Source of the DNA: an uncultured Spirochaetota bacterium
Lineage (GTDB): Bacteria > Spirochaetota > Spirochaetia > JAFGXN01
Assembly: GCA_944390005.1 (NCBI GenBank)
Contig: CALXOJ010000001.1
Coordinates: forward strand, 144,363 to 208,362
Direction of reading: 5' to 3'
DNA length: 64,000 bases
This document shows, one piece after another, positions 2,163-15,632 of this stretch; the first letter of the stretch is position 1, and the number at the start of each line of letters is the position of its first letter. The notes below the pieces were generated by a model. That model ran no database searches. It saw nothing but the letters and a program-made list of their open reading frames with translations, and was not told the DNA's origin. The position numbers and the translations under genes were made by a program.

Positions 2163-2314
2163 TCTATTTCCTTTTAACTTTAAGATAAAATCTATCAATC
2201 AATATTTTCTTATTATTTGATTTGTGCTATTCTGTATTCACCGTAGATTGTTTATTTACTATAATACAATACATCAAACAGAGTTTAAAAAGCAACCCCT
2301 TTCGGAGGTTTCGG

Positions 2315-3505
2315 GTGTTTGACAAACAAAAGCTGTTTAAAATTGGTGTTGTTTTCTTCGTTTTTATCGCCATTGCGGCAGTCCTGCTTCGGCTTCTGTT
2401 TTCGAAGACGACGCAGGCTCCCGAAACGACGATTCCTGTCGTTGTGACAAAGGGAATTCTCAGCGATTTACAGAAAGATTACAAAATTAACGCTTACATT
2501 GAGCCGAAAAACATGGTTCAGGTTCATTCGAAGGTCAGCGGCAATATCACCACATTCCGTGTTGACATCGGCGACAAAGTGAAGGCCGGCGACGAACTTC
2601 TCTTGATCAATGATGCTCCGTATCGTCTGCAGTTTGAGCAGGCATCGGCTGCCTACGACGGAATCGGCAAAATTTACGAACGGGTACGGCGGTCGTACAA
2701 TCAAGGCGTTGCGACTCAGCAAGAGTACGATGAAGCGCGGACCCGTTACGAAGCGACAAAGTCACAGTATGAACTGGCCAAGCTTCAGATGGATTATGCC
2801 CGCGTCGATTCGCCGATTGACGGAACCGTTTTACAGAAGTACGTCAGTACGGGACAGTTGGTTTCGCCCGACGTCGGTCTGCTTGTTGTCGCCGATTTGT
2901 CAGAGCTGGTTGTCCGCGCCAAGCTGCCGGAAGATAACTTTTTTCGATTCAATAAAGACCGGGATAAAATCACCGTTAAAATTAAACATCCTGCCGAAGA
3001 CACGCTGTATGCGGCTCATATCGAAAGAATCGGGGAGATGGTAGAGCCTCAGTCAAAGAATTTCGAGGTGGTCTGCAATCTGGATGAAGGCTACGATTTC
3101 CTTCGTCCCGGTATGTTTGTCAATGTCATTTTCATTCTTGAACGGAAAGAAGACGTTTACAGTCTGCCGATCCGGACTTTGGTTGGAGATGATGTGCTTT
3201 GGTACGTAAATCCTGATACAATGAGAGCCGAACGGATGATTTTTCAGCCGGTTTTTTCTGATGACGATTCGTTTGAAATTCCGAACGGATACAAAGATTA
3301 TTATTTCATTGTTGAAGGACAGAATTTTATTTACGACGGACAGCCGGTCTCTGTGAAAAATACTGACGATTATCCCGAACTCTCCGGAGAACAGCAGCCT
3401 GTTTCCGAATCGGAAAAAGAAGCTGCGGCTGTGCAAGAAACTTCCGGCGGTCAAGATGCCGAAACGGAAGCGGAAAGCGCCGTTGCGGAGGAATCGGCCG
3501 CATGA
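2315..3505 (+). CDS. RND efflux periplasmic adaptor (HlyD/membrane fusion protein)
   Basis: N-terminal TM segment, biotinyl/lipoyl-like hairpin (VSGNITTFRVDIGDKVKAGDELLLI), coiled coil and beta-barrel regions. The GTG start at about 2315 sits 6 nt after GGAGG. The C-terminus is acidic and low-complexity. Confidence 0.85.
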   Translation: MFDKQKLFKIGVVFFVFIAIAAVLLRLLFSKTTQAPETTIPVVVTKGILSDLQKDYKINAYIEPKNMVQVHSKVSGNITTFRVDIGDKVKAGDELLLINDAPYRLQFEQASAAYDGIGKIYERVRRSYNQGVATQQEYDEARTRYEATKSQYELAKLQMDYARVDSPIDGTVLQKYVSTGQLVSPDVGLLVVADLSELVVRAKLPEDNFFRFNKDRDKITVKIKHPAEDTLYAAHIERIGEMVEPQSKNFEVVCNLDEGYDFLRPGMFVNVIFILERKEDVYSLPIRTLVGDDVLWYVNPDTMRAERMIFQPVFSDDDSFEIPNGYKDYYFIVEGQNFIYDGQPVSVKNTDDYPELSGEQQPVSESEKEAAAVQETSGGQDAETEAESAVAEESAA

Positions 3506-6500
3506 AACCGTGGAATTTCGCCATTAAACATCCCGTCATTATCGGGATCATGTTGTTGACGATAGTGATGTTCGGCGGAATTTCTCTGACAACACTCAAG
3601 CAGGATTTGATTACCAATATATCGCTGCCGCAGATTGCCGTCTTTACGATTTATCCCGGCGCCGGACCGGAAGACGTCGAACAGGGCGTTACCGATATTC
3701 TTGAAGAGCGTTTCGCCGGTATTCAAGGCGTTGACAGCATTGAATCGTTTTCTCAAAATTCACTCTCGATGATTATTTTGATTTTCAATTCGGAAGCGGA
3801 CTTGGAACAAAAAATCAACGAGGTGCGGGCGGAAATCAACGCGTCAATGGTTTCGCTTCCTGATAACATCAGCGGAATGCCGATGGCGCTGGTTATGAGC
3901 TCCAACTTGTATCCGATCTTTTCTGCTCAGGTTGAGAGCACAATGAATCGGACTGTATTGACCGATTATATTCAGACAAAGGTTGTGCCGCTGCTCAGCC
4001 GTATCGAGGGTATTGCAACGGTCGATTTAGTCGGTTTGGCGGAACGGCAATTAGATATCGTTATTGATTTGGAAAAACTCGAATCGAGAAACATTTCCAT
4101 TCTCGATATTTATCAACTTTTGATGTACAATAATCTGACCTTTCCTGCGGGAAGCGTCAGTTACCGAGATAAGAAACTCAATGTCCGAACGGTCGGCAAC
4201 TTCAAAACCGTCAGCGACATCGGCGAAATGGTTGTCGGATACAAAGAGGATGAACGCAGTTTCGTTCTGTTGAAGGATATTGCTGTTATTAAAATTGTTG
4301 AAAAGAAACCGGATCACTACGCCGAATTCGGCGGGCAGTCGATTCTCGTTCTTGACATCCGAAAGAAATCCGACGGCGATTCGCTGGCGATTATCGATCA
4401 GGCGAAGGAGGTCTTCCGCCAGGTTTCACTGGATACCAACGGCGCTGTTGCGTTTACGCCGGTTATCGACAGTTCGTTTGATGTCAAGTTGGCGGTCAAT
4501 TCGGTGCGCGATTCGGCCGTACAAGGCGCCATTTTGGCGATTTTGGTTATTTTTCTTTTTCTCCACAATGTTCGGACGACTTTCATCATCGGATCGGCCA
4601 TTCCGCTCTCTGTTGTTATTTCTTTCATTTTTATGCGTTTCGGAAATCTCGACATCAACATCATTACGTTGGGCGGATTGACCGTCGCTATCGGTATGAT
4701 GGTCGACTCTGCCATCGTTATTTTGGAGAATACATACAACCACTTTGAGAAGACCGGCGACCGGAAAACCGCTTCTTCTGTCGGAGCGGGGGAGGTCGGC
4801 GGTGCTATTTTGGCTTCGACAACGACAACGCTGGCGGTTTTTGTTCCGATTCTCTTTTTGACCGGATTGGTTGGAGCCATTTTGAAAGACATCAGTCTGA
4901 CAATTTGTTTCGCAATTACCGCATCCGCCTTTGTTGCCGTCATTATTGTCCCATGGATGTGCTCACTGATGCTGAAACAGCCGCAGCCCGAAAAAGCGGG
5001 ACGAATCGGCCGTATTTATCAGATTGCGTCGAATAAAATCGATTTTGTCATTGATAAAGTCAGAGACGGTTACATTGCGGCGCTGCGGTGGGTGATCGGC
5101 AATAAAAAGTTTTTTGCGCTGCTGATGGTTCTGATTTTGATTCTCAGCGTGCTGCTCTTTTTGCTGCTCGGATTTACTTTCATTCCGTCGACCGATATGA
5201 ATGAATTCCAGATTGAAGTGACCGCGCCTTCCGGTTTTTCTCTGGAGCAGACGCGTGAAAAAATGAGAGAAATCGAAGCGATTGTCAACGAATTGGTTCC
5301 CGAGTTGGATTCGGGGTATTACTATACCGGTTTGTCGGGAGCGTACGACGTCGTTTACGTACCGAAGAAAGGCTTTGCTAAATTGCGTCTGATCCGCAAA
5401 TCGGAGCGTCCCGAAGTCGACGGGCGTGTGCGCAACGTTCAGGATGTCATTTTGCTGCTGCAGGAGGAAATTCCGGCGCGGGTGACCGACGTCAACGTTG
5501 TTGTTTCCAACGGCGGTATCGATAAAATGCTTTCGTATGCGACCGGCGGCGCCGGATTGGTGATCGAAGTTTTCGGCGAGGATTTCGACGACGTTTTACA
5601 GTCGGCGACCACCGTTTCCGAAATACTCAGCAAGGATCCCGGAATTTATAAAACCGGTATGAACGTTGTCACCACCGAGTATGAAGTCATCAACGAACTG
5701 ACGCTGCGGTATTTGAATTACCTCGGCATCACTCCGTTTGAAGCCGGCGTAACCTCTCGTATCATTTTCAACGGAATGGAAGTCGGACAGTTCAATGAGG
5801 ATGGCAAAAATTACACCATCAATTTGGTTTCCAATGTTGCCGGAGAGAGAATTACCGACGACATTCTCAACAAAATCCGCATCAAGAACCGACAGAACGA
5901 CTTTATCAGCTTTGAAAATATTTCGCAGATGCAAATCGAAAAGACAGTCGATCAAATTCCTCACATTGACCGAATGAAATCGATTGTGGTGACCGGTTAT
6001 CAGCGGGATCCCGACATCAAAGCCATCGGAGACCGGTTTACGGCGAAAATGAATGAAATTGTCTTACCGGGTGATGTACAGTGGAAAATCGGCGGTTCGT
6101 CTGAGTTGCTGACTTCATCCCTCGACAGTCTGGTGAAGGTGCTGCTGATTGCAATTTACCTCGTTTATGTTGTCATGGTGGTTCAGTTTGAGCGTTTCAT
6201 TCAGCCGTTCATCATTTTGGGCTCGATTCCGTTTGTCGTCATCGGTGTGGCGCTGACGCTGTTTTTGACGAATACACAAATTTCCCTCGTTTCGATGCTG
6301 GGAATCATTGCGTTGGCGGGAACGGTCGTCAATAACGCTATCGTTTTAGTCGATTTTACCAATTTATTGAGACGCGATTATAATATGGAATTGATGGACG
6401 CCGTCTACAAAGGCGCCGCGTCCCGTTTTAAGCCCATTATGATGACCACACTGACAACTATTTTGGGCGTTATTCCGATGGCGTTTGGAGGCGGCGAGGG

Positions 6501-6666
6501 CGCTGAAATTTACGCTCCGCTGGGTCTGACTATCGGCAGCGGTTTGATTACTTCTACTGCGGTTACCTTGTTTATCATTCCGATGCTTTATGCGACAGTC
6601 GAAAAGCGCATGGAAAATCGGAAACAAAAGAAAAAAATTGCAATTTCAGGGGAGGCTTCGAAATGA
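3502..6666 (+). CDS. RND family efflux transporter permease (AcrB/HAE1-like), 12 TM
   Basis: 1054 aa with characteristic length and TM/porter-domain layout. ATGA overlap with the upstream adaptor. Confidence 0.95.
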   Translation: MKPWNFAIKHPVIIGIMLLTIVMFGGISLTTLKQDLITNISLPQIAVFTIYPGAGPEDVEQGVTDILEERFAGIQGVDSIESFSQNSLSMIILIFNSEADLEQKINEVRAEINASMVSLPDNISGMPMALVMSSNLYPIFSAQVESTMNRTVLTDYIQTKVVPLLSRIEGIATVDLVGLAERQLDIVIDLEKLESRNISILDIYQLLMYNNLTFPAGSVSYRDKKLNVRTVGNFKTVSDIGEMVVGYKEDERSFVLLKDIAVIKIVEKKPDHYAEFGGQSILVLDIRKKSDGDSLAIIDQAKEVFRQVSLDTNGAVAFTPVIDSSFDVKLAVNSVRDSAVQGAILAILVIFLFLHNVRTTFIIGSAIPLSVVISFIFMRFGNLDINIITLGGLTVAIGMMVDSAIVILENTYNHFEKTGDRKTASSVGAGEVGGAILASTTTTLAVFVPILFLTGLVGAILKDISLTICFAITASAFVAVIIVPWMCSLMLKQPQPEKAGRIGRIYQIASNKIDFVIDKVRDGYIAALRWVIGNKKFFALLMVLILILSVLLFLLLGFTFIPSTDMNEFQIEVTAPSGFSLEQTREKMREIEAIVNELVPELDSGYYYTGLSGAYDVVYVPKKGFAKLRLIRKSERPEVDGRVRNVQDVILLLQEEIPARVTDVNVVVSNGGIDKMLSYATGGAGLVIEVFGEDFDDVLQSATTVSEILSKDPGIYKTGMNVVTTEYEVINELTLRYLNYLGITPFEAGVTSRIIFNGMEVGQFNEDGKNYTINLVSNVAGERITDDILNKIRIKNRQNDFISFENISQMQIEKTVDQIPHIDRMKSIVVTGYQRDPDIKAIGDRFTAKMNEIVLPGDVQWKIGGSSELLTSSLDSLVKVLLIAIYLVYVVMVVQFERFIQPFIILGSIPFVVIGVALTLFLTNTQISLVSMLGIIALAGTVVNNAIVLVDFTNLLRRDYNMELMDAVYKGAASRFKPIMMTTLTTILGVIPMAFGGGEGAEIYAPLGLTIGSGLITSTAVTLFIIPMLYATVEKRMENRKQKKKIAISGEASK

Positions 6667-8078
6667 AAAGATCGGTTTTATTGCTGTTGTTGGCGGTTTT
6701 TTTGCTGCCGATCGGCTGTGACGGAGTTTATGATACGTCCGTACAGGGCGTTGTAGTGGATTGGGATGATTACAACAGCGCTGCCGTGGAGGATCCCGGA
6801 ATTAACGACGTCGATGTTTATCTCTACCTTGATGAAACACTTTTGGATGAAGATTTGACGGCGTGGGGCAACGATGGAACACTTCCCGACAATCGTCTTA
6901 ATAAGAAAGGCGTCAAAGAGCAGGCCTATTATCAGAAAACCACGACGGCTTCTTCCGGCGGAGAAAACGGCGTGTTCAACTTCAACGGCTTAATGTGGCG
7001 AAATTTCTTCCCCGAATTCGGTAACGACGGAGACCGTGCAACGCTCTATTTTCTCTTCTATCATAAAGATTACGGCATGGTGAAAGCTGATAACCCCGTG
7101 ATTGCCACTTCAGGCGTCACCAACAAGTTGCCGCAGTTTCGAATCAAAAAAGCGCTGTGTGAAGTTATCCTCAGCGGTTATGTCGTCGATATGAATAAAA
7201 AGAAGGAAGGTTCCGGAAGCAAACTGCCGCTGCAGGGGGTGACTGTCGGTATTTATATGCCGATAGAATTCAACAGTTCGACGGGAGCTGCCGAAGCGTG
7301 GGAAACGGAGCCGAAGTACACGGTTCTGACCGATGCTGACGGTCGGTTTGAGCAGAAAATCAATTTTACAAAGCGAAATGAACCTGTCAACCAGAAGTGT
7401 ACGGTCAAACTCACTTTTGATCTGACCGATTATGTCGGTTATACTCTGACATCGGAAGCTGCCAACCAATACAGCGGTCTGAACGGAGATGCCGTCCCCG
7501 AAGTCGAACGTGATTCAGCCAACTGGGTTCTGCTCAACGGATCGGAAAGCGTTTCCCTGTCGTACAAAGGCTTTGACGGAACGGCTACGACAGTCTCGGA
7601 TATTTCCGAGAGCGTCGGCGGCGGAGCCGGTCCCGATTTTACGGAAAAATATGACATCGACAACGACGGTGAAGACGAAGTATGTTTGCCGGTGACGTTG
7701 ACCTGCAATACCGACAACCCCAACGGCAGCAGTTACCGGCTGGGCGAGAGCGTTTATCTGAAGCAGTACCGTTTTTCGACAACCGTTGCGGGAAGCATTT
7801 TGGACAGTACCGGAACAACGCTGAACGGAAGTGTCACACTCTCTTCCGCAGCCGATTATTCGAATTCAGAAACGACCAAGACTCAGTTAATCAGTTCAGG
7901 AGATACGCCTGTCTACGGATATTCAATGAGCTATTCGTGGACGGTTTACAATTACAGTACCGAGTATGCGTATCAGTTGGTTTACATGAAAGCGTCTGCC
8001 GGTTCTTCAAATATTGATAAAGGGGCGACGCTGATTTCCGGCCGTTCGGAAAATGCAGTGGACTTTATAAAACCATAA
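6663..8078 (+). CDS. lipoprotein of unknown function embedded in the RND operon (beta-sandwich CarboxypepD_reg/transthyretin-like repeats suspected)
   Basis: Signal peptide plus lipobox (LLPIGC). Motifs such as GYVVD...LQGVTVGIY...TDADGRF resemble carboxypeptidase-regulatory-like domains. ATGA overlap with the RND pump and 10 nt to the TolC-like gene. GGGGAGG ribosome-binding site. Confidence 0.6.
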   Translation: MKRSVLLLLLAVFLLPIGCDGVYDTSVQGVVVDWDDYNSAAVEDPGINDVDVYLYLDETLLDEDLTAWGNDGTLPDNRLNKKGVKEQAYYQKTTTASSGGENGVFNFNGLMWRNFFPEFGNDGDRATLYFLFYHKDYGMVKADNPVIATSGVTNKLPQFRIKKALCEVILSGYVVDMNKKKEGSGSKLPLQGVTVGIYMPIEFNSSTGAAEAWETEPKYTVLTDADGRFEQKINFTKRNEPVNQKCTVKLTFDLTDYVGYTLTSEAANQYSGLNGDAVPEVERDSANWVLLNGSESVSLSYKGFDGTATTVSDISESVGGGAGPDFTEKYDIDNDGEDEVCLPVTLTCNTDNPNGSSYRLGESVYLKQYRFSTTVAGSILDSTGTTLNGSVTLSSAADYSNSETTKTQLISSGDTPVYGYSMSYSWTVYNYSTEYAYQLVYMKASAGSSNIDKGATLISGRSENAVDFIKP

Positions 8079-8088
8079 GGAGTCGGAC

Positions 8089-9774
8089 GTGGAAATAAAA
8101 ATGAAAGGGAGAACGCTGCCTTTCGCCGTTTTTTTCCTGTTTCTCTCCCTCTTTGCTTTCGGTGAAAAGAAAAGCTACACCGAGGTGATAACCACCGATC
8201 CCCTTGTCGAGAAAGGGCTTTCGGTCTCTGCTGGAAAGAAAATCGGCATTTGGCGTCCTCCGACAGAAAAAAAAGAGCTCCCGACTGACCGAAAAATTAC
8301 ATTGGAAGATTTGATTGAGCATGCGCTGACAAACAATGCTGAATTGGGGCAGATGCGCTCGGAGGTTAATCAGGCTAAAATCGGCGTTATGGGGGCGAAG
8401 GCCAACTATTTCCCCAAAGTCGATTTTCAGGCGTCGATGACATGGTTTTTGAATCCGCTGAAAGAGATCGGTTTGAAACAGGGTGAATTGGGGATCGTCG
8501 AAATTCCCAACGTCGGTTCTGTAATGCTTCCGATGGAGGATTACAGCCTCTATGATGCCCGCGACAATTCGTTTTATCGGTTTGTCTTTACATTGGAGCA
8601 ACCGATCTTCACATGGGGAAAAATTCCTGCCGCCGTCAAACTCTATCGGGAAGCCGCTCGGGCTGCTGAGCTGAAGTGCGCCCGCAAAGAGAGAGAATTG
8701 GAAGCATCCGTCAACGGCTATTACTTTTCGATTTATTATTTGAATCAAATTTCAGCCGCATTGGGCGAACAGATGCAGTATTCGGATCGGCTGCTGCTTT
8801 TAACCCGCTCCAGTTACGAAAACGGATTCATCACCTTGACCGACTTTCAGGACGTTCAAACGAAGGTCAAAGACGTTCAGATTGCCGATTCGCGCGTTAA
8901 AGACAGCTTTAACATGATCCGATACAAATTGATCGCGGCTCTCGGCGGAACGAATATCGATTTGGAAAATATCGATTTTACCGGAGCGGAAGAGCGGCTG
9001 GCGGAGTTTGAAACCGCCGACTGGATGAAAACTCTCGACGAATACGTTTCCCAGGCGAAGGCGGCGAGCGTTGAAATGGATTTATTGCGCGCTCAGGTTG
9101 AAGTTTATGAACAAAAGTATGATATCGCCAAGGCGGACAGCTACTTGAAACCGGCGGTCGGAATGCAGGTTCAGGCAGGATTTTCGGGAACGGCATTTCC
9201 GTTTTTGGAACGCGGCTGGTATACAAGCGGTTCGCCGATTTTAAGCGCTTCGATCGGAATTCAGTCGCGTATTTTGGACGGCGGAGACCGTCTTTCGACG
9301 ATTATGCTCGGCGAACAGGAGCTGCAAAACGCGAAGTATCAGCTTCAGTCCGGGGAATTTACCATCGAATCGACAGTTTCGACTTTGTACTCGAATATCG
9401 AATACAATTACACCAACATTGCGTATTTGAAAGATCAAGAGGCCAATTATCAGCGTTTGGCCGATCGGCAACGGATTCGCTATAACGCCGGGCAACTGCG
9501 GGAAATCGATTATTTGCGCAGTCTGATTGAGTATCAGACCAGTCTGATTTCGACGGCGAACGAACGAATCACATTGGTCGGAAATTATTTTCAGCTGATG
9601 TACTTAATCGATAATGTCGACGGAAAAGACGAGCCGGTTGTAACGGAAGAGGTGATAGCCGATTCGCCGGAGGCAGAGCCCGGAAACGGGACTGCTGCCG
9701 AAAACGCGGGCGAAGCGGCATCTGAAACCGCGCAGACCGCCGCAACCGAAACACCGGCCGCTCAGGCGGAGTAA
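8089..9774 (+). CDS. TolC-family outer membrane efflux channel
   Basis: Signal peptide, two outer-membrane-efflux-protein repeats with coiled-coil heptads, last gene of the operon. C-terminal acidic Ala/Glu/Thr tail. Confidence 0.85.
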   Translation: MEIKMKGRTLPFAVFFLFLSLFAFGEKKSYTEVITTDPLVEKGLSVSAGKKIGIWRPPTEKKELPTDRKITLEDLIEHALTNNAELGQMRSEVNQAKIGVMGAKANYFPKVDFQASMTWFLNPLKEIGLKQGELGIVEIPNVGSVMLPMEDYSLYDARDNSFYRFVFTLEQPIFTWGKIPAAVKLYREAARAAELKCARKERELEASVNGYYFSIYYLNQISAALGEQMQYSDRLLLLTRSSYENGFITLTDFQDVQTKVKDVQIADSRVKDSFNMIRYKLIAALGGTNIDLENIDFTGAEERLAEFETADWMKTLDEYVSQAKAASVEMDLLRAQVEVYEQKYDIAKADSYLKPAVGMQVQAGFSGTAFPFLERGWYTSGSPILSASIGIQSRILDGGDRLSTIMLGEQELQNAKYQLQSGEFTIESTVSTLYSNIEYNYTNIAYLKDQEANYQRLADRQRIRYNAGQLREIDYLRSLIEYQTSLISTANERITLVGNYFQLMYLIDNVDGKDEPVVTEEVIADSPEAEPGNGTAAENAGEAASETAQTAATETPAAQAE

Positions 9775-9783
9775 CGCTTTTTC

Positions 9784-9815
9784 AAACGGCTGTCTCCTGA
9801 CAGCCGTTTTTTTTC
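9784..9815 (+). terminator. rho-independent terminator between convergent genes
   Basis: AAACGGCTGTC-tcct-GACAGCCGTTT (11-bp stem) followed by T8, immediately after the TolC-like stop. Could also serve the convergent minus-strand gene (weaker U-tract). Confidence 0.8.
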
Positions 9816-9817
9816 TT

Positions 9818-12709
9818 TTACAGCCGGACGGCGCGCAGCGGCTTCCGGATTGCTTCGTTCCGCAGCAGAGACAGCGCCGAAGCGATGTCAAGCGAAAAGT
9901 ACGGTTTGAGATCTTCCCGAATATCGAAAACGACACCGGCTGAGGTCGGAATTCGGCAGGAAACGCCGACGGTCAACGGAAAAACTGCCTGAGCAAACCC
10001 GATTTGAATGTTTAATTCTCCGCCAAGATAGACGTAATTACCGAACGCCGCCGTTTGTTCGATCGTATTAAAATTCGCATAAATTTGCGTAAACAAAGCG
10101 CCCGAAAACGAGTGAAGGGCCAATGTTGCGAACAGCGGCGCGTCAACGATCGCAATCGGAAACTGGTACCCGAACGATGCGCTTAAAGCGGCGGTTGTGT
10201 TTCGATCTTCGTATTCAAAGCCTCGCAGCAGCAATTGATGAGTCTGATTGACTTCCGTTGATGCGGAAAAGCAGATCTCTGAAAAAAACGAGTGCGCGCC
10301 GACAATGGGAATCGTTCCCATTACAGCAAAGACGCCCAGAAAAACCGGCTCTTCGATTTCTCCGATCGGCAACAAAACCGAGGAGTTGAACCCCGCGTAG
10401 ACGTACTGCGCCAGCGACGGATAACCGCGGAATCCGCTGTGCCATGAATATTGAAAATCGATATTTTGATTGGAGTAGAGAAAGTGCTCCGATTCAATGC
10501 CTCCGGCAGCGGCATTTGCCATTCCGAATGCGTGAAACGGTTCAGCCGCCGTCATTGTCCAATAGTGAGTCAATCCGCCGCCGATCTCTGCATGCCACTG
10601 ACGGTTGGCGAGGGATCGGGTAAAAAGCGGAACCGAGACCGACAGCGTTTGTGAGAATTCCTGACGGTATTCGGATCCTGTTTCATCCTCGAACAAATTG
10701 CCGCCGTTGAGCAGCGAATAAGAAAATTTCAGTATCGAAGCCTCAAACGCGGCGTCAAGAAAAACAGAGGGCTGAAAAACCGAATTCCCTTCAGCCTCAA
10801 ACGGAAACGACGTCATAAAAAAAACGGAATCGTTTTTGACAACCGATTGGGCGTACATCAGAAATCCGAAACCGAGCGGATTGGCAAAGCCTCCGACCGG
10901 AGAATAATTGATCGGAAACGGTGTCCATCCGACAAATTGAGCCGAGTCGATGTATCTTTTGACAGTCAACGATACGCCTGGAAGGGAGGCCGGATCGGGA
11001 ACCGTCGGCTCAACCGCTGTCGGTTGGACGGTTACAGTGAGCGCCAGCGTTTCGGGCGCAGCGGCGGTCTCCTCGGCAATTTTTATGACATAGCCGTCAG
11101 ACGCGTAAGACTGGTAGTAAAATCGGCCGCCGTATCGGATACCTGCCAAAACACCGATGCGATCGGAGAGCCGTTTGACGGCTTCACCTCCGTTTTTGGG
11201 ATTCCGTTCGAACAGTTCGAGCGATCCGCTGCCGTCTCCGATAAAAAACAGCGACCCGTTTTGATCAAACTCCGGGTAATAAAGCATTCCGCCGTTTTCC
11301 GCCGTCAAGAATTCGACAGTTTGTGACTCCCGATCGAGCACGGCAACGGATTGGACTCCCGCACGGTTGTACGCAAACGCAATCAGGCGGCTGTCCGGCG
11401 AAACGGTCGGATGAAAGACGTTGACTTCACCGCCGTCGAAGAGCGTTTGAACGGCTCCCGTTTTGAGATCAACCGACACAAGACGCGAATACGGTCCGTC
11501 CGTTTGAACGGCGGCAGCTGTGTTTTCGTCGATGTACGCCGGTTGGAAAAGCCGAGCGTTTTTTGTAATCCGCCGCGTTTTTCCGCTTTCGGCACACCAT
11601 TCAAACAAGTCGGCGACCGAATGAGGATGACCTTCGACGGCGTAGTCAATTTCATAGCCCGAATAAAGAATACGGCTGCCGTCAAAAAGAGCGTCGTAAT
11701 CGTTTGCGTTGGTCAGGGAGGCAAACGCAATCGGCTGTTCGGCTCCCGTATCGGGATCCAAAAAAACGAAGCGGGACGGATTTTCGTTCGAAGCGTTCTG
11801 ATAGGAGAGAATGCCTTGGATAGTCGCTACGGGGCGGCCGTAATCGATGCGGACGCCTTTTGAGAACCGTTCGCCGAGAGGCAGATCATAGAGCGGTTCA
11901 AATCGCTCCGAGTAAAACCGAATCATGTCGCGGTAAAGCGTTTCTGTCGGTTTTCCCGTAACAATTTCAAAAGCCCGATACGGTGCCAGCGGATTCTTTT
12001 CCATTTGCCGGTAGAATCGCGCCATGACATCGTCGCCGTAAGTTTCAAAGAGATAATTGATCATCATATAACCGACGACGTAAATTCTTCCGTAAGGCTG
12101 AATGTACGGATTGTAAGCTGCCTGCTTGAGCGACGGCATGGCGTTTTCCGTTATTTGAGCGCGATAAATCATTTCAAAATAAGGATTTCGCCCCCTTCCG
12201 CCTTTTGAAAAACGGGTTTCGGTGTACGTTGTGATTCCTTCGATGACCCAACCGGGTTGAAAGACGGACGGAGCCGGACGCAAAATCGGACCGAAAAATT
12301 TTGACAGTTCATAAAGCCATCCGCTTTCCGGTGACATAGAGATATAGTGCGTCAGTTCATGGGTAAAAAGCGATCGCAGCCAATTTTCGGTCCGTGCGCC
12401 GAGAAAAAAATCCCGCGGCGATGTGACGTAGAGATTCAGATATTCGGGAACGGGGTAGTAGCTTCCGTTGGCTTGATTGACGTCGCTGTGGATAACGACT
12501 TTGATTTGCCGCGGTCGATTTTCCAGCAATCCGGCCAAATTTTCGTAAACCTCTTCAGAAAACGATGCAATTTCCCGCGCCCACCGTTCGTTGTCTTTCT
12601 CGAAAATAAAAACGAAGTGTTCCGTTTCAATTTGATAACGGGAAACGGACCATGCGGAAAGAGCGGAAGTCAGAAAAATTGCGATTAAAAAGAGACGGAA
12701 GAGCTTCAT
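9818..12709 (-). CDS. large exported protein: N-terminal HExxH (gluzincin-like) domain + TolB-like beta-propeller + C-terminal beta-rich (barrel-like) region
   Basis: 963 aa with a signal peptide. FTHELTHYIS...WVIEGITTY gives HExxH plus a downstream Glu. PDSRLIAFAYNRAGVQSVAVLD-type propeller blades follow. The Gly/aromatic-rich C-terminal 400 aa ends in an aromatic residue. Confidence 0.6.
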   Translation of the reverse strand: MKLFRLFLIAIFLTSALSAWSVSRYQIETEHFVFIFEKDNERWAREIASFSEEVYENLAGLLENRPRQIKVVIHSDVNQANGSYYPVPEYLNLYVTSPRDFFLGARTENWLRSLFTHELTHYISMSPESGWLYELSKFFGPILRPAPSVFQPGWVIEGITTYTETRFSKGGRGRNPYFEMIYRAQITENAMPSLKQAAYNPYIQPYGRIYVVGYMMINYLFETYGDDVMARFYRQMEKNPLAPYRAFEIVTGKPTETLYRDMIRFYSERFEPLYDLPLGERFSKGVRIDYGRPVATIQGILSYQNASNENPSRFVFLDPDTGAEQPIAFASLTNANDYDALFDGSRILYSGYEIDYAVEGHPHSVADLFEWCAESGKTRRITKNARLFQPAYIDENTAAAVQTDGPYSRLVSVDLKTGAVQTLFDGGEVNVFHPTVSPDSRLIAFAYNRAGVQSVAVLDRESQTVEFLTAENGGMLYYPEFDQNGSLFFIGDGSGSLELFERNPKNGGEAVKRLSDRIGVLAGIRYGGRFYYQSYASDGYVIKIAEETAAAPETLALTVTVQPTAVEPTVPDPASLPGVSLTVKRYIDSAQFVGWTPFPINYSPVGGFANPLGFGFLMYAQSVVKNDSVFFMTSFPFEAEGNSVFQPSVFLDAAFEASILKFSYSLLNGGNLFEDETGSEYRQEFSQTLSVSVPLFTRSLANRQWHAEIGGGLTHYWTMTAAEPFHAFGMANAAAGGIESEHFLYSNQNIDFQYSWHSGFRGYPSLAQYVYAGFNSSVLLPIGEIEEPVFLGVFAVMGTIPIVGAHSFFSEICFSASTEVNQTHQLLLRGFEYEDRNTTAALSASFGYQFPIAIVDAPLFATLALHSFSGALFTQIYANFNTIEQTAAFGNYVYLGGELNIQIGFAQAVFPLTVGVSCRIPTSAGVVFDIREDLKPYFSLDIASALSLLRNEAIRKPLRAVRL

Positions 12710-13177: not shown

Positions 13178-14578
13178 TTACAAAAGATTTTTCCCCAACA
13201 GCCGTTTTAACCGCTCTCGATCTTCTTTAACAAAAATATTTTTTTCATGAAACGGAAGAACCGTTCCGATGGGACCGTTCTTCGCTCTCCGTAAATACTT
13301 CACCTGCGTGCAGTACAAATCGGCTGCCGCATGGTTTTTGGCTTTACTGAACCATTTTGCCAATTGCGCTGCGTCAAGAAGAACTTCTTGAGGAACGGTT
13401 TCTTTTTTCCCATTTTTGATGAAAACATAGCCGCCGGGAACGTCCCGTGTGTGAAGCCACCAATCATTTCCTTTTACATGGAAACGAAGCAGTTCGTCAT
13501 TTTCTTTGCCGCTGCGGCCGACTAAAATCTGCCGATCGCCTGAAATAAAAGTCGGAAAGCCTGCGGCGAGTTTCTTTTCGGTCGTGTTGAGATGTGTTTT
13601 TTTCAGTGGACCGTGTTGTAAAATTTCCTCGTCGGCGGCGGTTTCGAAAAAAGAGAGCTCTGTTTTGAGGGCGGCAGCTTCGGTTTGAATTTCGTTGAGG
13701 CGCAGAGCAGTCGCGGCCGCGGCGGCTTTTTTCTTTTTGTACCGTTTATAATATTCCCGACTGTTTTCAACCGATGTCAACCGCGGATCGAGAGTGATTT
13801 CCGTTTTATGTCCGTCGGGGGTTTCGACTGTAACGGAAGCGGCTCCGGCCGGCTGCGGCGGTAACGAAAGCAGCAGATCGGCTGCCTGTTTTTCCGAGCA
13901 GTGAAGGGCGTCGAATTGCGTTTCAGGCAACAGTTTTTCCGCCAGCCGCCGCAGCTGTTCGAGACGCGCTTCCACCGGGGTTTTCAGCTCCGAGCGCAGC
14001 CGTTCGACATCCGGCGTCGGCGTTGTCTTTCGACCGTAAAAGGCGGCGGCTTGTTCGCCAAAAGTGCCGTCACCGTCAAACGAACGCGGGACGAATTTCC
14101 CGGAATCGGTGCTTGCCGGCGGAAGAATCAGAGGCTCTCCGCCGATTTCTTTTTTGTTCGGACGACGGTAAAACGCATCGAGAATGGTTCCTTTTTCATC
14201 TACGGCGAGAATGTTGGCAGCCCCCGACCACAGACGGACGTATAAATTCGAGACGGTTCCGCCCCGAACGATTTTCAGCCATATAATTCGGTTAAAGTCG
14301 ATTTGGCGGGACTCTTCGATTCTTCCGCCGTCGATGCGGCTTTTGAGAAACTGAACAAAACGCTGCGGTTTGCCGTCAGCGGGCGGCTTCCCCATTATCG
14401 GAAGCACGGCGGTTTTCCCGTGTCCCAAATAAAAACCGACAGAGAATCGCTTATCCCCCGGTCGATACAGCTCAAAAATCAACGATTCGAAATCCGGCTG
14501 ACGGATTTTTTGGATAAAACATCCTTGAAGATTTAATTCCGAGAGGATAAGATCGATTTCAGCGCAGTTGAGAGACAT
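13178..14578 (-). CDS. NFACT-family protein (FbpA/RqcH-like, ribosome quality control) with C-terminal NFACT-R/DUF814
   Basis: GFPTFISGDRQILVGRSGKENDELL...WWLHTRDVPGGYVF is the DUF814 signature, and the N-terminal NFACT-N region is present. Start taken at MSLNCAEIDL; the track ORF begins 18 nt upstream. Confidence 0.75.
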   Translation of the reverse strand: MSLNCAEIDLILSELNLQGCFIQKIRQPDFESLIFELYRPGDKRFSVGFYLGHGKTAVLPIMGKPPADGKPQRFVQFLKSRIDGGRIEESRQIDFNRIIWLKIVRGGTVSNLYVRLWSGAANILAVDEKGTILDAFYRRPNKKEIGGEPLILPPASTDSGKFVPRSFDGDGTFGEQAAAFYGRKTTPTPDVERLRSELKTPVEARLEQLRRLAEKLLPETQFDALHCSEKQAADLLLSLPPQPAGAASVTVETPDGHKTEITLDPRLTSVENSREYYKRYKKKKAAAAATALRLNEIQTEAAALKTELSFFETAADEEILQHGPLKKTHLNTTEKKLAAGFPTFISGDRQILVGRSGKENDELLRFHVKGNDWWLHTRDVPGGYVFIKNGKKETVPQEVLLDAAQLAKWFSKAKNHAAADLYCTQVKYLRRAKNGPIGTVLPFHEKNIFVKEDRERLKRLLGKNLL

Positions 14579-15632
14579 CGTTGTTCCAGCCGTCAACGGT
14601 GCGGAGAAAGACTTTCATCTCTTCCGGCGTACCGACAGAAATGCGTACGCGATTGCGGGTTTTCGGGAGATCAAAGTATCGCACAAGAATGCCTTCATCT
14701 TTCAGCCGTCGGTAAACGGCTTCTCCCGGCAGCGTCGGATGGGCCGCAAAGAGAAAGTTGGCAAGCGACGGAAGAACATCCCAGCCCCGTTTGCGCAATT
14801 CATCGGCAATCCGTTCCCGTGTTCGGATGACTTCATCGCGGCGTTTTTCAAAATATCCGATGTCGCGAAGGGCATCGACGGCGCACTCCTGAGTAAAGCG
14901 ATTGACTGTATACGAATTGAAGCTGTTTTTTACTTTTTCCAAAGATTGGATGAGCTTGGGATTGCCGACGGCGTACCCGAGGCGCAATCCGGCCAGCGAA
15001 CGGCTTTTCGAAAAGGTTCCGGTAATCAGTAAATTCTCGAATTCTCCGGTTAATTCGACGGCACTCTCTCCGCCGAAATCGATGTATGCTTCGTCTATGA
15101 TGACAATGCGGTCTTTCGGCCGTGCAGTCAAAATACGGCGGATGGTTTTTCTGTCGACGGCAATTCCGGTCGGTGCGTTCGGATTAGGGAAAATAACGCC
15201 GGCGTCGGCTTTTGATTCCGTAAAAGATGAAAAGTCGATCGATAAATCGTTGTTGACGGCTGTTTCTCGGAACGGAAGACCGTAAAAGCGGCAGTAAACC
15301 GGGTAAAAGCTGTAGGTCACTTCGGGAAAGAGGACAGGACCGTTATCCGCGTCAAAAAAGGCAGCAAACGCAAACGAAAGCACTTCATCGCTGCCGTTGC
15401 CGGTAAAGATGTGAGACGGCGGTACCCGCAGCGTATCGGCGAGCGCTTCTTTCAAAACTCGGCAGTCCGGGTCCGGATAGAGGCGGAAGTCTTCGGCATT
15501 GATTTTCTTTTTCTGAATCTTCGGACACGGCGGATACGGATTTTCGTTCGTATTGAGCTTGATGTATTTTTTGTCCCGCGGCTGTTCCCCGGGCGTGTAG
15601 GCCGTCAGCCGGGCAAGGAGTCTTGATTCCAT
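14559..15632 (-). CDS. hisC: histidinol-phosphate aminotransferase (class II PLP aminotransferase)
   Basis: MESRLLARLTAYTPGEQP...IKLNTNENPYPP and the YAVGNPKLI...KNSFN lysine region. Confidence 0.9.
   Translation of the reverse strand: MESRLLARLTAYTPGEQPRDKKYIKLNTNENPYPPCPKIQKKKINAEDFRLYPDPDCRVLKEALADTLRVPPSHIFTGNGSDEVLSFAFAAFFDADNGPVLFPEVTYSFYPVYCRFYGLPFRETAVNNDLSIDFSSFTESKADAGVIFPNPNAPTGIAVDRKTIRRILTARPKDRIVIIDEAYIDFGGESAVELTGEFENLLITGTFSKSRSLAGLRLGYAVGNPKLIQSLEKVKNSFNSYTVNRFTQECAVDALRDIGYFEKRRDEVIRTRERIADELRKRGWDVLPSLANFLFAAHPTLPGEAVYRRLKDEGILVRYFDLPKTRNRVRISVGTPEEMKVFLRTVDGWNNDVSQLR

Follow-up and report, generated by a model that had tools for sequence, protein, structure and literature searches.

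A beta-sandwich lipoprotein encoded between the pump and channel genes of spirochaete RND efflux operons is a probable dedicated accessory of the system

Tripartite efflux pumps, a main route of intrinsic resistance to drugs and toxins in bacteria with two membranes, have long been regarded as assemblies of three parts. In E. coli, the outer-membrane lipoprotein YbjP (DUF3828), published in 2026, binds TolC with 3:3 stoichiometry at the equatorial domain of the channel (PMC13082787, PMC13095208), and it has been proposed to compensate for the missing lipidation of TolC, replacing the anchor with which OprM and CusC are themselves equipped (PMC13095208, PMC13082787). CusCFBA, a system of the resistance-nodulation-division (RND) type with four genes, includes the periplasmic metallochaperone CusF (PMC3017539). 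Here we describe an RND operon in a 64,000-nucleotide stretch (the window, at its full length) of contig CALXOJ010000001.1 from an uncultured Spirochaetota bacterium, in which a predicted lipoprotein of 471 residues is encoded between the permease and the outer-membrane channel. This lipoprotein very probably serves the RND system as a dedicated accessory.

Four co-directional open reading frames (ORFs) are packed on the forward strand at window positions 2315–9774 (Table 1), encoding in order the periplasmic adaptor (MFP), the RND permease, the lipoprotein and a TolC-like outer-membrane factor (OMF). The adaptor scored 162.7 bits against an NCBIfam cutoff of 94.9, the PF02321 match of the channel amounted to 140 bits in two stretches, as expected for two OEP repeats, and the top NCBIfam match of the permease was the multidrug RND_permease_2 model, with multidrug models outscoring CusA/CzcA. 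At the level of sequence families, the adaptor, the AcrB/AcrD/AcrF-family permease and the channel confirm the operon as a tripartite RND system; efflux of the multidrug type is hinted at by the best permease match and by TetR genes that neighbour the operons of relatives. The first-pass annotation of this DNA had claimed that a lipoprotein gene interrupts the adaptor-pump-channel series, joined to it by an ATGA overlap at its 5' end and a 10-nt gap at its 3' end, and both the ORFs with their Pfam and NCBIfam matches and our reading of the junctions bore this out. The adaptor frame is open from 2222, with GGAGG 6 nt 5' of its GTG start at 2315; adaptor and permease genes overlap by ATGA at 3502–3505, and permease and lipoprotein genes by ATGA at 6663–6666, where GGGGAGG precedes the lipoprotein start by 7 nt. 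The lipoprotein frame closes with TAA at 8076–8078, directly at an AAGGAG (8077–8082) that lies 6 nt 5' of the GTG start of the channel at 8089. A single promoter-like site precedes the adaptor, inside a 116-nt AT-rich gap bordered on its other side by the divergent aroK, and a single strong terminator, common to a convergent gene that ends at 9818, follows the channel. We propose that all four proteins are made from one transcript; the tight junctions, which are conserved, fit co-expression and may reflect translational coupling.

With YbjP and its channel, the locus shares an N-terminal lipidated cysteine (predicted here), a channel that lacks a lipid anchor of its own and the same proposed role, that is, anchoring or positioning the channel of tripartite pumps at the outer membrane. 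The resemblance would be one of function: hhalign aligned only the signal peptides of the two proteins, at a probability of 9.5%, and the window protein has no DUF3828 match in Pfam, so that homology to YbjP was rejected. The window protein is built of all-beta transthyretin-like sandwiches, whereas YbjP has a Tai3-like DUF3828 fold (PMC13082787), and it comprises 452 mature residues in four domains as against about 150 in YbjP. While ybjP has the art genes as neighbours and lies apart from acrAB and tolC, the genes of the window family sit between RND and OMF genes; the former occurs in some Enterobacterales, the latter in Spirochaetota. Channel binding has been demonstrated for YbjP, whereas for the window lipoprotein we infer it. 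The initial claim that such a subunit is of a type not described for AcrAB-TolC-like systems therefore holds in part: a lipoprotein partner of TolC has been known since 2026, yet that partner is unrelated, small and encoded outside the pump operon. Apart from the YbjP papers and general reviews, full-text literature searches for an efflux lipoprotein from spirochaetes or of the sandwich type retrieved nothing.

CusCFBA resembles the locus in that a fourth, non-membrane-spanning protein is encoded within an RND operon, but CusF is small, soluble, metal-binding and not lipidated, and the window pump, unlike that of CusCFBA, matches multidrug-type RND models rather than CusA/CzcA and has TetR-flanked relatives. 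A metallochaperone of the CusF type was rejected on the grounds that the lipoprotein has neither a CusF-family match nor a metal-site motif and that the permease scores higher on multidrug models. We likewise rejected an accessory resembling AcrZ, YajC or MexG, which are small proteins of the inner membrane, since the model of the mature lipoprotein contains no transmembrane helices. Finally, intrinsically lipidated channels (OprM, CusC, NodT-type) bear a cysteine of their own, whereas here the polypeptide that carries it is a separate gene product.

The arrangement recurs in all but one of the informative loci of the family. We looked up the gene order at 12 non-redundant loci, whose profile E-values ranged from 1e-215 to 2e-14, and scanned metagenomes with a sub-family alignment, which yielded 25 more loci in which ORFs were labelled by BLASTP against the components identified in the other operons. 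The gene directly 3' of the lipoprotein encodes a PF02321 channel in all 12 look-ups, and the gene directly 5' is that of the permease in 11; among the metagenome loci that reach far enough, a channel gene lies downstream in 21 of 21 and a permease gene upstream in 23 of 23, usually with a TetR gene at one end of the locus. The full order adaptor-permease-lipoprotein-channel is seen in L001, L009, L010, L011 and L014–L017, and in L012 with TetR next to the adaptor; L008 reads permease-lipoprotein-channel, and L005 the same followed by TetR. The exception is L006, where adaptor and permease are transcribed divergently and the lipoprotein has been kept with the channel as a TetR-lipoprotein-channel unit. 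Across the family, permease and lipoprotein genes are spaced by −26 to +42 nt, and lipoprotein and channel genes by −17 to +15 nt. The surroundings of the 12 loci are unrelated (aroC/aroK, citrate synthase, an ABC transporter, hydrogenase and others), and the linkage is for this reason more than local synteny. Even for homologues of only about 20–30% identity, all loci that we examined show the linkage to RND genes, which decisively answers the objection, foreseen in the first-pass annotation, that the lipoprotein might lie apart from such genes elsewhere. At L013, a possible exception on a short contig with a distant member (P0131), positions 1–300 upstream of the gene hold the end of a low-complexity Gly/Ser/Ala-rich ORF with no recognisable RND C-terminus.

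The 471-residue product begins with MKRSVLLLLLAVFLLPIGC, in which a charged n-region (MKR) and a hydrophobic core lead to Cys19. Cys19 is invariant in 80 aligned relatives, and in 126 of 130 full-length cluster representatives the hydrophobic leader ends in [LFAI][TSA][SGA]C, directly followed by a conserved mature start of the form C-S-[SVA]-V-F-x-[ASG]-[SG]-[ILV]-x-G; the lipobox of the window protein, L-P-I-G-C, is non-canonical at −3. Leader, lipobox and invariant cysteine together predict a lipoprotein. Compared with its 88% identical counterpart in L007, the gene has a ratio of nonsynonymous to synonymous substitution rates (dN/dS) of 0.11 overall, with 0.017 in the first domain, D1, and 0.245 in the last, D4, the fastest-evolving; because of the overall value, we take the gene to be real and under purifying selection.

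A word-indexed search returned 15 close relatives, and a HMMER scan of 1.84 billion cluster representatives returned 197 at E up to 1e-3, 123 of them at E up to 1e-10, most matches covering only query positions of about 1–155, i.e. the leader and D1; a word-indexed search with an 80-sequence profile added just four further distant members. Among full-length representatives, mature length varies from 237 to 761 residues with the number of C-terminal domains, longer members carrying extra copies of the sandwich unit. All members whose source is named are annotated as 'hypothetical protein' and come from Spirochaetia, Spirochaetales, Sphaerochaetaceae or Candidatus Ornithospirochaeta, the genome match nearest to the window is an uncultured Spirochaetes metagenome-assembled genome, and the family is common in metagenomes of anaerobic digesters, sludge and sediment. 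The window gene thus founds an uncharacterised family of lipoproteins that comprises about 200 clusters and, as far as these searches reach, is confined to spirochaetes. A 3.2-kb ENA contig (P0013) encodes a 299-residue product in which lipoprotein residues 1–122 are joined to a LacI-type periplasmic-binding-like domain; a true fusion is less likely here than an error, either chimeric assembly or a frameshift in the gene call.

The window protein has no match in Pfam or NCBIfam, and a profile of it and its homologues matched no PDB chain at E up to 1. In the AlphaFold model, almost everything after the signal peptide is beta structure, arranged in four domains. Profile-profile comparison identified D1, D2 and D4 as repeats of one transthyretin/carboxypeptidase-regulatory-like sandwich (hhalign probabilities: D1-D4 96.6%, E 5e-10; D1-D2 92%, E 6e-7; D2-D4 88%), and the seven-stranded beta-sandwich of the window protein can be superposed on the regulatory domain of carboxypeptidase D. 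The protein stays below the gathering score of Pfam CarboxypepD_reg (PF13620), sub-threshold matches to which occur in 5 of 14 homologues, and a distant member (P0160) reaches 34.9 bits against a cutoff of 32.3. The earlier suggestion that the repeats are sandwiches of this kind, made from the translation, is in this way substantiated by the model and by hhalign for three of the four domains. D3 showed no relation to D1, D2 or D4 in hhalign; its loop, DIDNDG (residues 331–336, window 7653–7670), has nearly invariant D331 and G336 and, by its motif resemblance, may bind calcium. CarboxypepD_reg/transthyretin modules, which also include the SusC N-terminal extension and CnaB pilin domains, are generic and have no defined function, but D1 is set apart from them by an insertion of about 60 residues that is specific to the family, together with the conserved motif after the cysteine. 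A role as peptidoglycan tether, also suggested at first, was dropped as a leading explanation, since the domain searches detected neither LysM, OmpA-like or SPOR domains nor any others that bind the cell wall.

Several observations point to the channel as the likely partner of the lipoprotein: the rearranged L006, the absence of lipidation from the linked channels and the YbjP precedent. The leaders of these channels are of the signal-peptidase-I type (AFA|Q, LFA|x) and without a lipobox cysteine in 26 of 27 operons, L012 (FLFC|DE) being ambiguous; in the window, the channel leader ends ...LFLSLFAFG|EKK, likewise without such a cysteine. D1 is, by its sequence divergence, constrained about as strongly as the core pump parts, with a mean p-distance of 0.64 as compared to 0.62 for the adaptor, 0.57 for the permease, 0.70 for the channel and 0.79 for the rest of the lipoprotein. 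In the model, the ordered part of D1 starts about 5 residues past Cys19, so that in a lipidated protein D1 must lie on a membrane surface.

Together, these data suggest the following mechanism. The lipoprotein would be exported, cleaved and lipidated at Cys19, which would place D1 directly on the surface of a membrane, most likely the outer one. At that surface, D1 would attach to the non-lipidated channel trimer on its periplasmic flank, and the lipoprotein would provide in trans a lipid anchor of the kind that is built into many homologues of the channel, helping to position or stabilise the channel for docking of the adaptor, while the variable string of beta-sandwich domains, one of them with a DxDxDG loop, may extend along the channel or away from it. 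The data show how the operon is built, that the protein has the features and the fold described, how large its family is and how strictly its gene keeps its place beside genes for non-lipidated channels; the anchoring membrane, the channel as partner and the effect on pump assembly are the parts that we infer. Taken as a whole, this mechanism, with a dedicated fourth component that sits in the outer membrane, binds a non-lipidated channel through D1 and helps the pump to assemble, has in our judgement about an even chance of being correct.

A number of observations weigh against this mechanism. The +2 residue of the window protein is Asp (C-D-G), where most family members have Ser. Asp at +2 means inner-membrane retention in E. 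coli; the sorting rules of spirochaetes differ. Pairwise distances from 16 operons, saturated and from co-inherited genes, correlate about equally for D1 and the channel (r = 0.89), the permease (0.93) and the adaptor (0.91) and so do not single out the channel, and partial correlations from the same saturated distances lean, if anywhere, to the permease (0.62 versus 0.07); we did not count these correlations for any partner, because they are dominated by co-inheritance and saturation. No natural fusion of lipoprotein and channel was found among the longest family members, whose extra length consists of sandwich repeats, and the variable number of C-terminal domains argues against a collar of fixed geometry. 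Moreover, efflux in the laboratory does not require YbjP (PMC13082787), and for this reason a role like that of YbjP could give little phenotype.

Some of these same observations would be explained if the protein were instead an accessory of the permease or the adaptor, either anchored in the inner membrane or periplasmic. D1 would then lie at the periplasmic side of the cytoplasmic membrane, close to the entry sites of the pump or the membrane-proximal domain of the adaptor, and would serve as an extra adaptor or as a module for substrate capture or delivery. In 11 of 12 look-ups, and in 23 of the 23 metagenome loci that are informative on this point, the gene does come directly after that of the permease and overlaps it, the partial correlations favour permease and adaptor over the channel, and the Asp at +2 of the window protein would fit; the adaptor here is, according to its translation, anchored by a membrane helix at its N-terminus and has no lipobox, and CusF of CusCFBA shows that a fourth component can be periplasmic (PMC3017539). 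Against this stand L006, where the gene parts from permease and adaptor and remains with the channel, the Ser that most members have in place of Asp, the confounding of the correlations and the detection of generic sandwich modules only, with no ligand-binding or adaptor-like domain. We consider this alternative unlikely.

The adjacency of the channel gene and the missing lipidation of the channels would equally suit a transient biogenesis factor, one that escorts the channel along the lipoprotein-sorting route, inserts it into the outer membrane and then dissociates, a chaperone role of the kind that has been proposed for YbjP (PMC13082787). An escort has no obvious need for multiple rigid sandwich domains and a strongly constrained D1, and we regard such a factor as decidedly unlikely. 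A surface-exposed lipoprotein, with sandwich domains that project outward from the outer membrane near the exit of the channel, for instance as a shield, adhesin or receptor decoy, and merely co-expressed with the pump, is more improbable still: over 30 loci keep the gene strictly between those of permease and channel, and this position and the very strong constraint on the membrane-proximal D1 speak for a conserved protein partner, and the family is common in habitats (digester, sludge, sediment) where no host exists. That the gene is a functionally unrelated passenger, for which the absence of a known functional domain could be cited, is close to refuted by an order conserved at about 20–30% identity in unrelated neighbourhoods, by junctions that are tight or overlapping throughout and by strong purifying selection.

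Table 1 Positions of the efflux operon and its signals in the window, with the domains of the lipoprotein
Feature	Window positions	Strand	Basis
Promoter-like site TTCACC-17-TATAAT	2237–2265	+	Consensus scan, pattern match only
Periplasmic adaptor (MFP), start GTG 2315	2315–3505	+	TIGR01730 RND_mfp 1e-47; HlyD_D23 3e-17
RND permease, 1054 aa	3502–6666	+	PF00873 ACR_tran 2e-211 over residues 5–1033
471-aa lipoprotein	6663–8078	+	ORF and translation; overlaps RND stop by ATGA
Predicted lipoprotein signal peptide, residues 1–18, and Cys19 (codon 6717–6719)	6663–6719	+	Alignment, family lipobox
D1, residues 22–163, conserved family-defining transthyretin-like beta-sandwich, inserted helix 58–71	6726–7151	+	
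D2, residues 164–263, second sandwich of D1 type	7152–7451	+	hhalign, AlphaFold model
D3, residues 286–369, small beta domain with DxDxDG loop	7518–7769	+	hhalign
D4, residues 370–471, third sandwich of D1 type	7770–8075	+	hhalign
TolC-like OMF, 561 aa	8089–9774	+	PF02321 OEP 7.8e-41; TIGR01844 1.6e-25
Intrinsic terminator, 11-bp stem, 6 GC pairs (9784–9809), plus T-run	9784–9819	+	Terminator scan

Both the adaptor (3370–3505) and the channel (9620–9774) end in acidic low-complexity tails of about 45–50 residues, rich in Ala, Glu, Thr and Ser, which are absent from most of the distant operons. The first-pass annotation had also remarked that no TetR or MarR regulator is adjacent. Indeed, there is no homologue of either across the whole 64-kb window, but this is a feature of the lineage, as most operons of relatives adjoin a TetR gene. 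At the edge of the window, positions 1–486 on the reverse strand encode the first 162 residues of an OmpR-type response regulator, cut by the window start and 84.6% identical to a regulator in L001, where a HAMP/HisKA kinase comes next. This gene lies two genes upstream of the efflux operon, from which aroC and aroK separate it, and might replace the TetR gene of other lineages. No second efflux locus was present in the window, and an Rfam scan of its whole length returned no match.

The convergent gene beyond the operon, with which the terminator is held in common (9818–12709, reverse strand), encodes a 963-residue protein with weak matches to propellers of the TolB/PD40/Tricorn type; conservation of this neighbourhood is limited to the close lineage (L001), which makes a part in the efflux system improbable. 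Further along, positions 13178–14596 on the reverse strand encode an NFACT-family protein (NFACT_N and an NFACT-R_1 RNA-binding domain) that resembles RqcH, among the ribosome-quality-control factors, and occupies the same place in L001.

In sum, the operon is probably a four-gene RND system with an uncharacterised fourth gene, of a kind already known, in which the lipoprotein family is what had not been described. A stronger version, in which many spirochaete RND pumps are obligatorily four-part, with an outer-membrane lipoprotein that clamps the channel trimer via D1 and is required for assembly, we put forward only tentatively, as something that we doubt rather than expect. If it were true, channels of the TolC type would have acquired lipoprotein partners on at least two independent occasions, as YbjP in enterobacteria and as this family in spirochaetes, and channel-bound lipoproteins would be a general solution rather than a peculiarity of E. 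coli. The discovery of YbjP in 2026 raised the question of whether such lipoproteins are general, and the spirochaete family offers a second, independent case, with a genetic linkage to the pump far stronger than that of YbjP, namely operon membership in a family of about 200 sequence clusters. A lipobox with C-S-x-V-F...G after it, encoded between the genes of an RND permease and an OMF, may serve as a signature for annotation, by which a sizeable set of spirochaete 'hypothetical proteins' gains a context and a testable function. The family is a clear target for structural and genetic study of the role of channel-associated lipoproteins.

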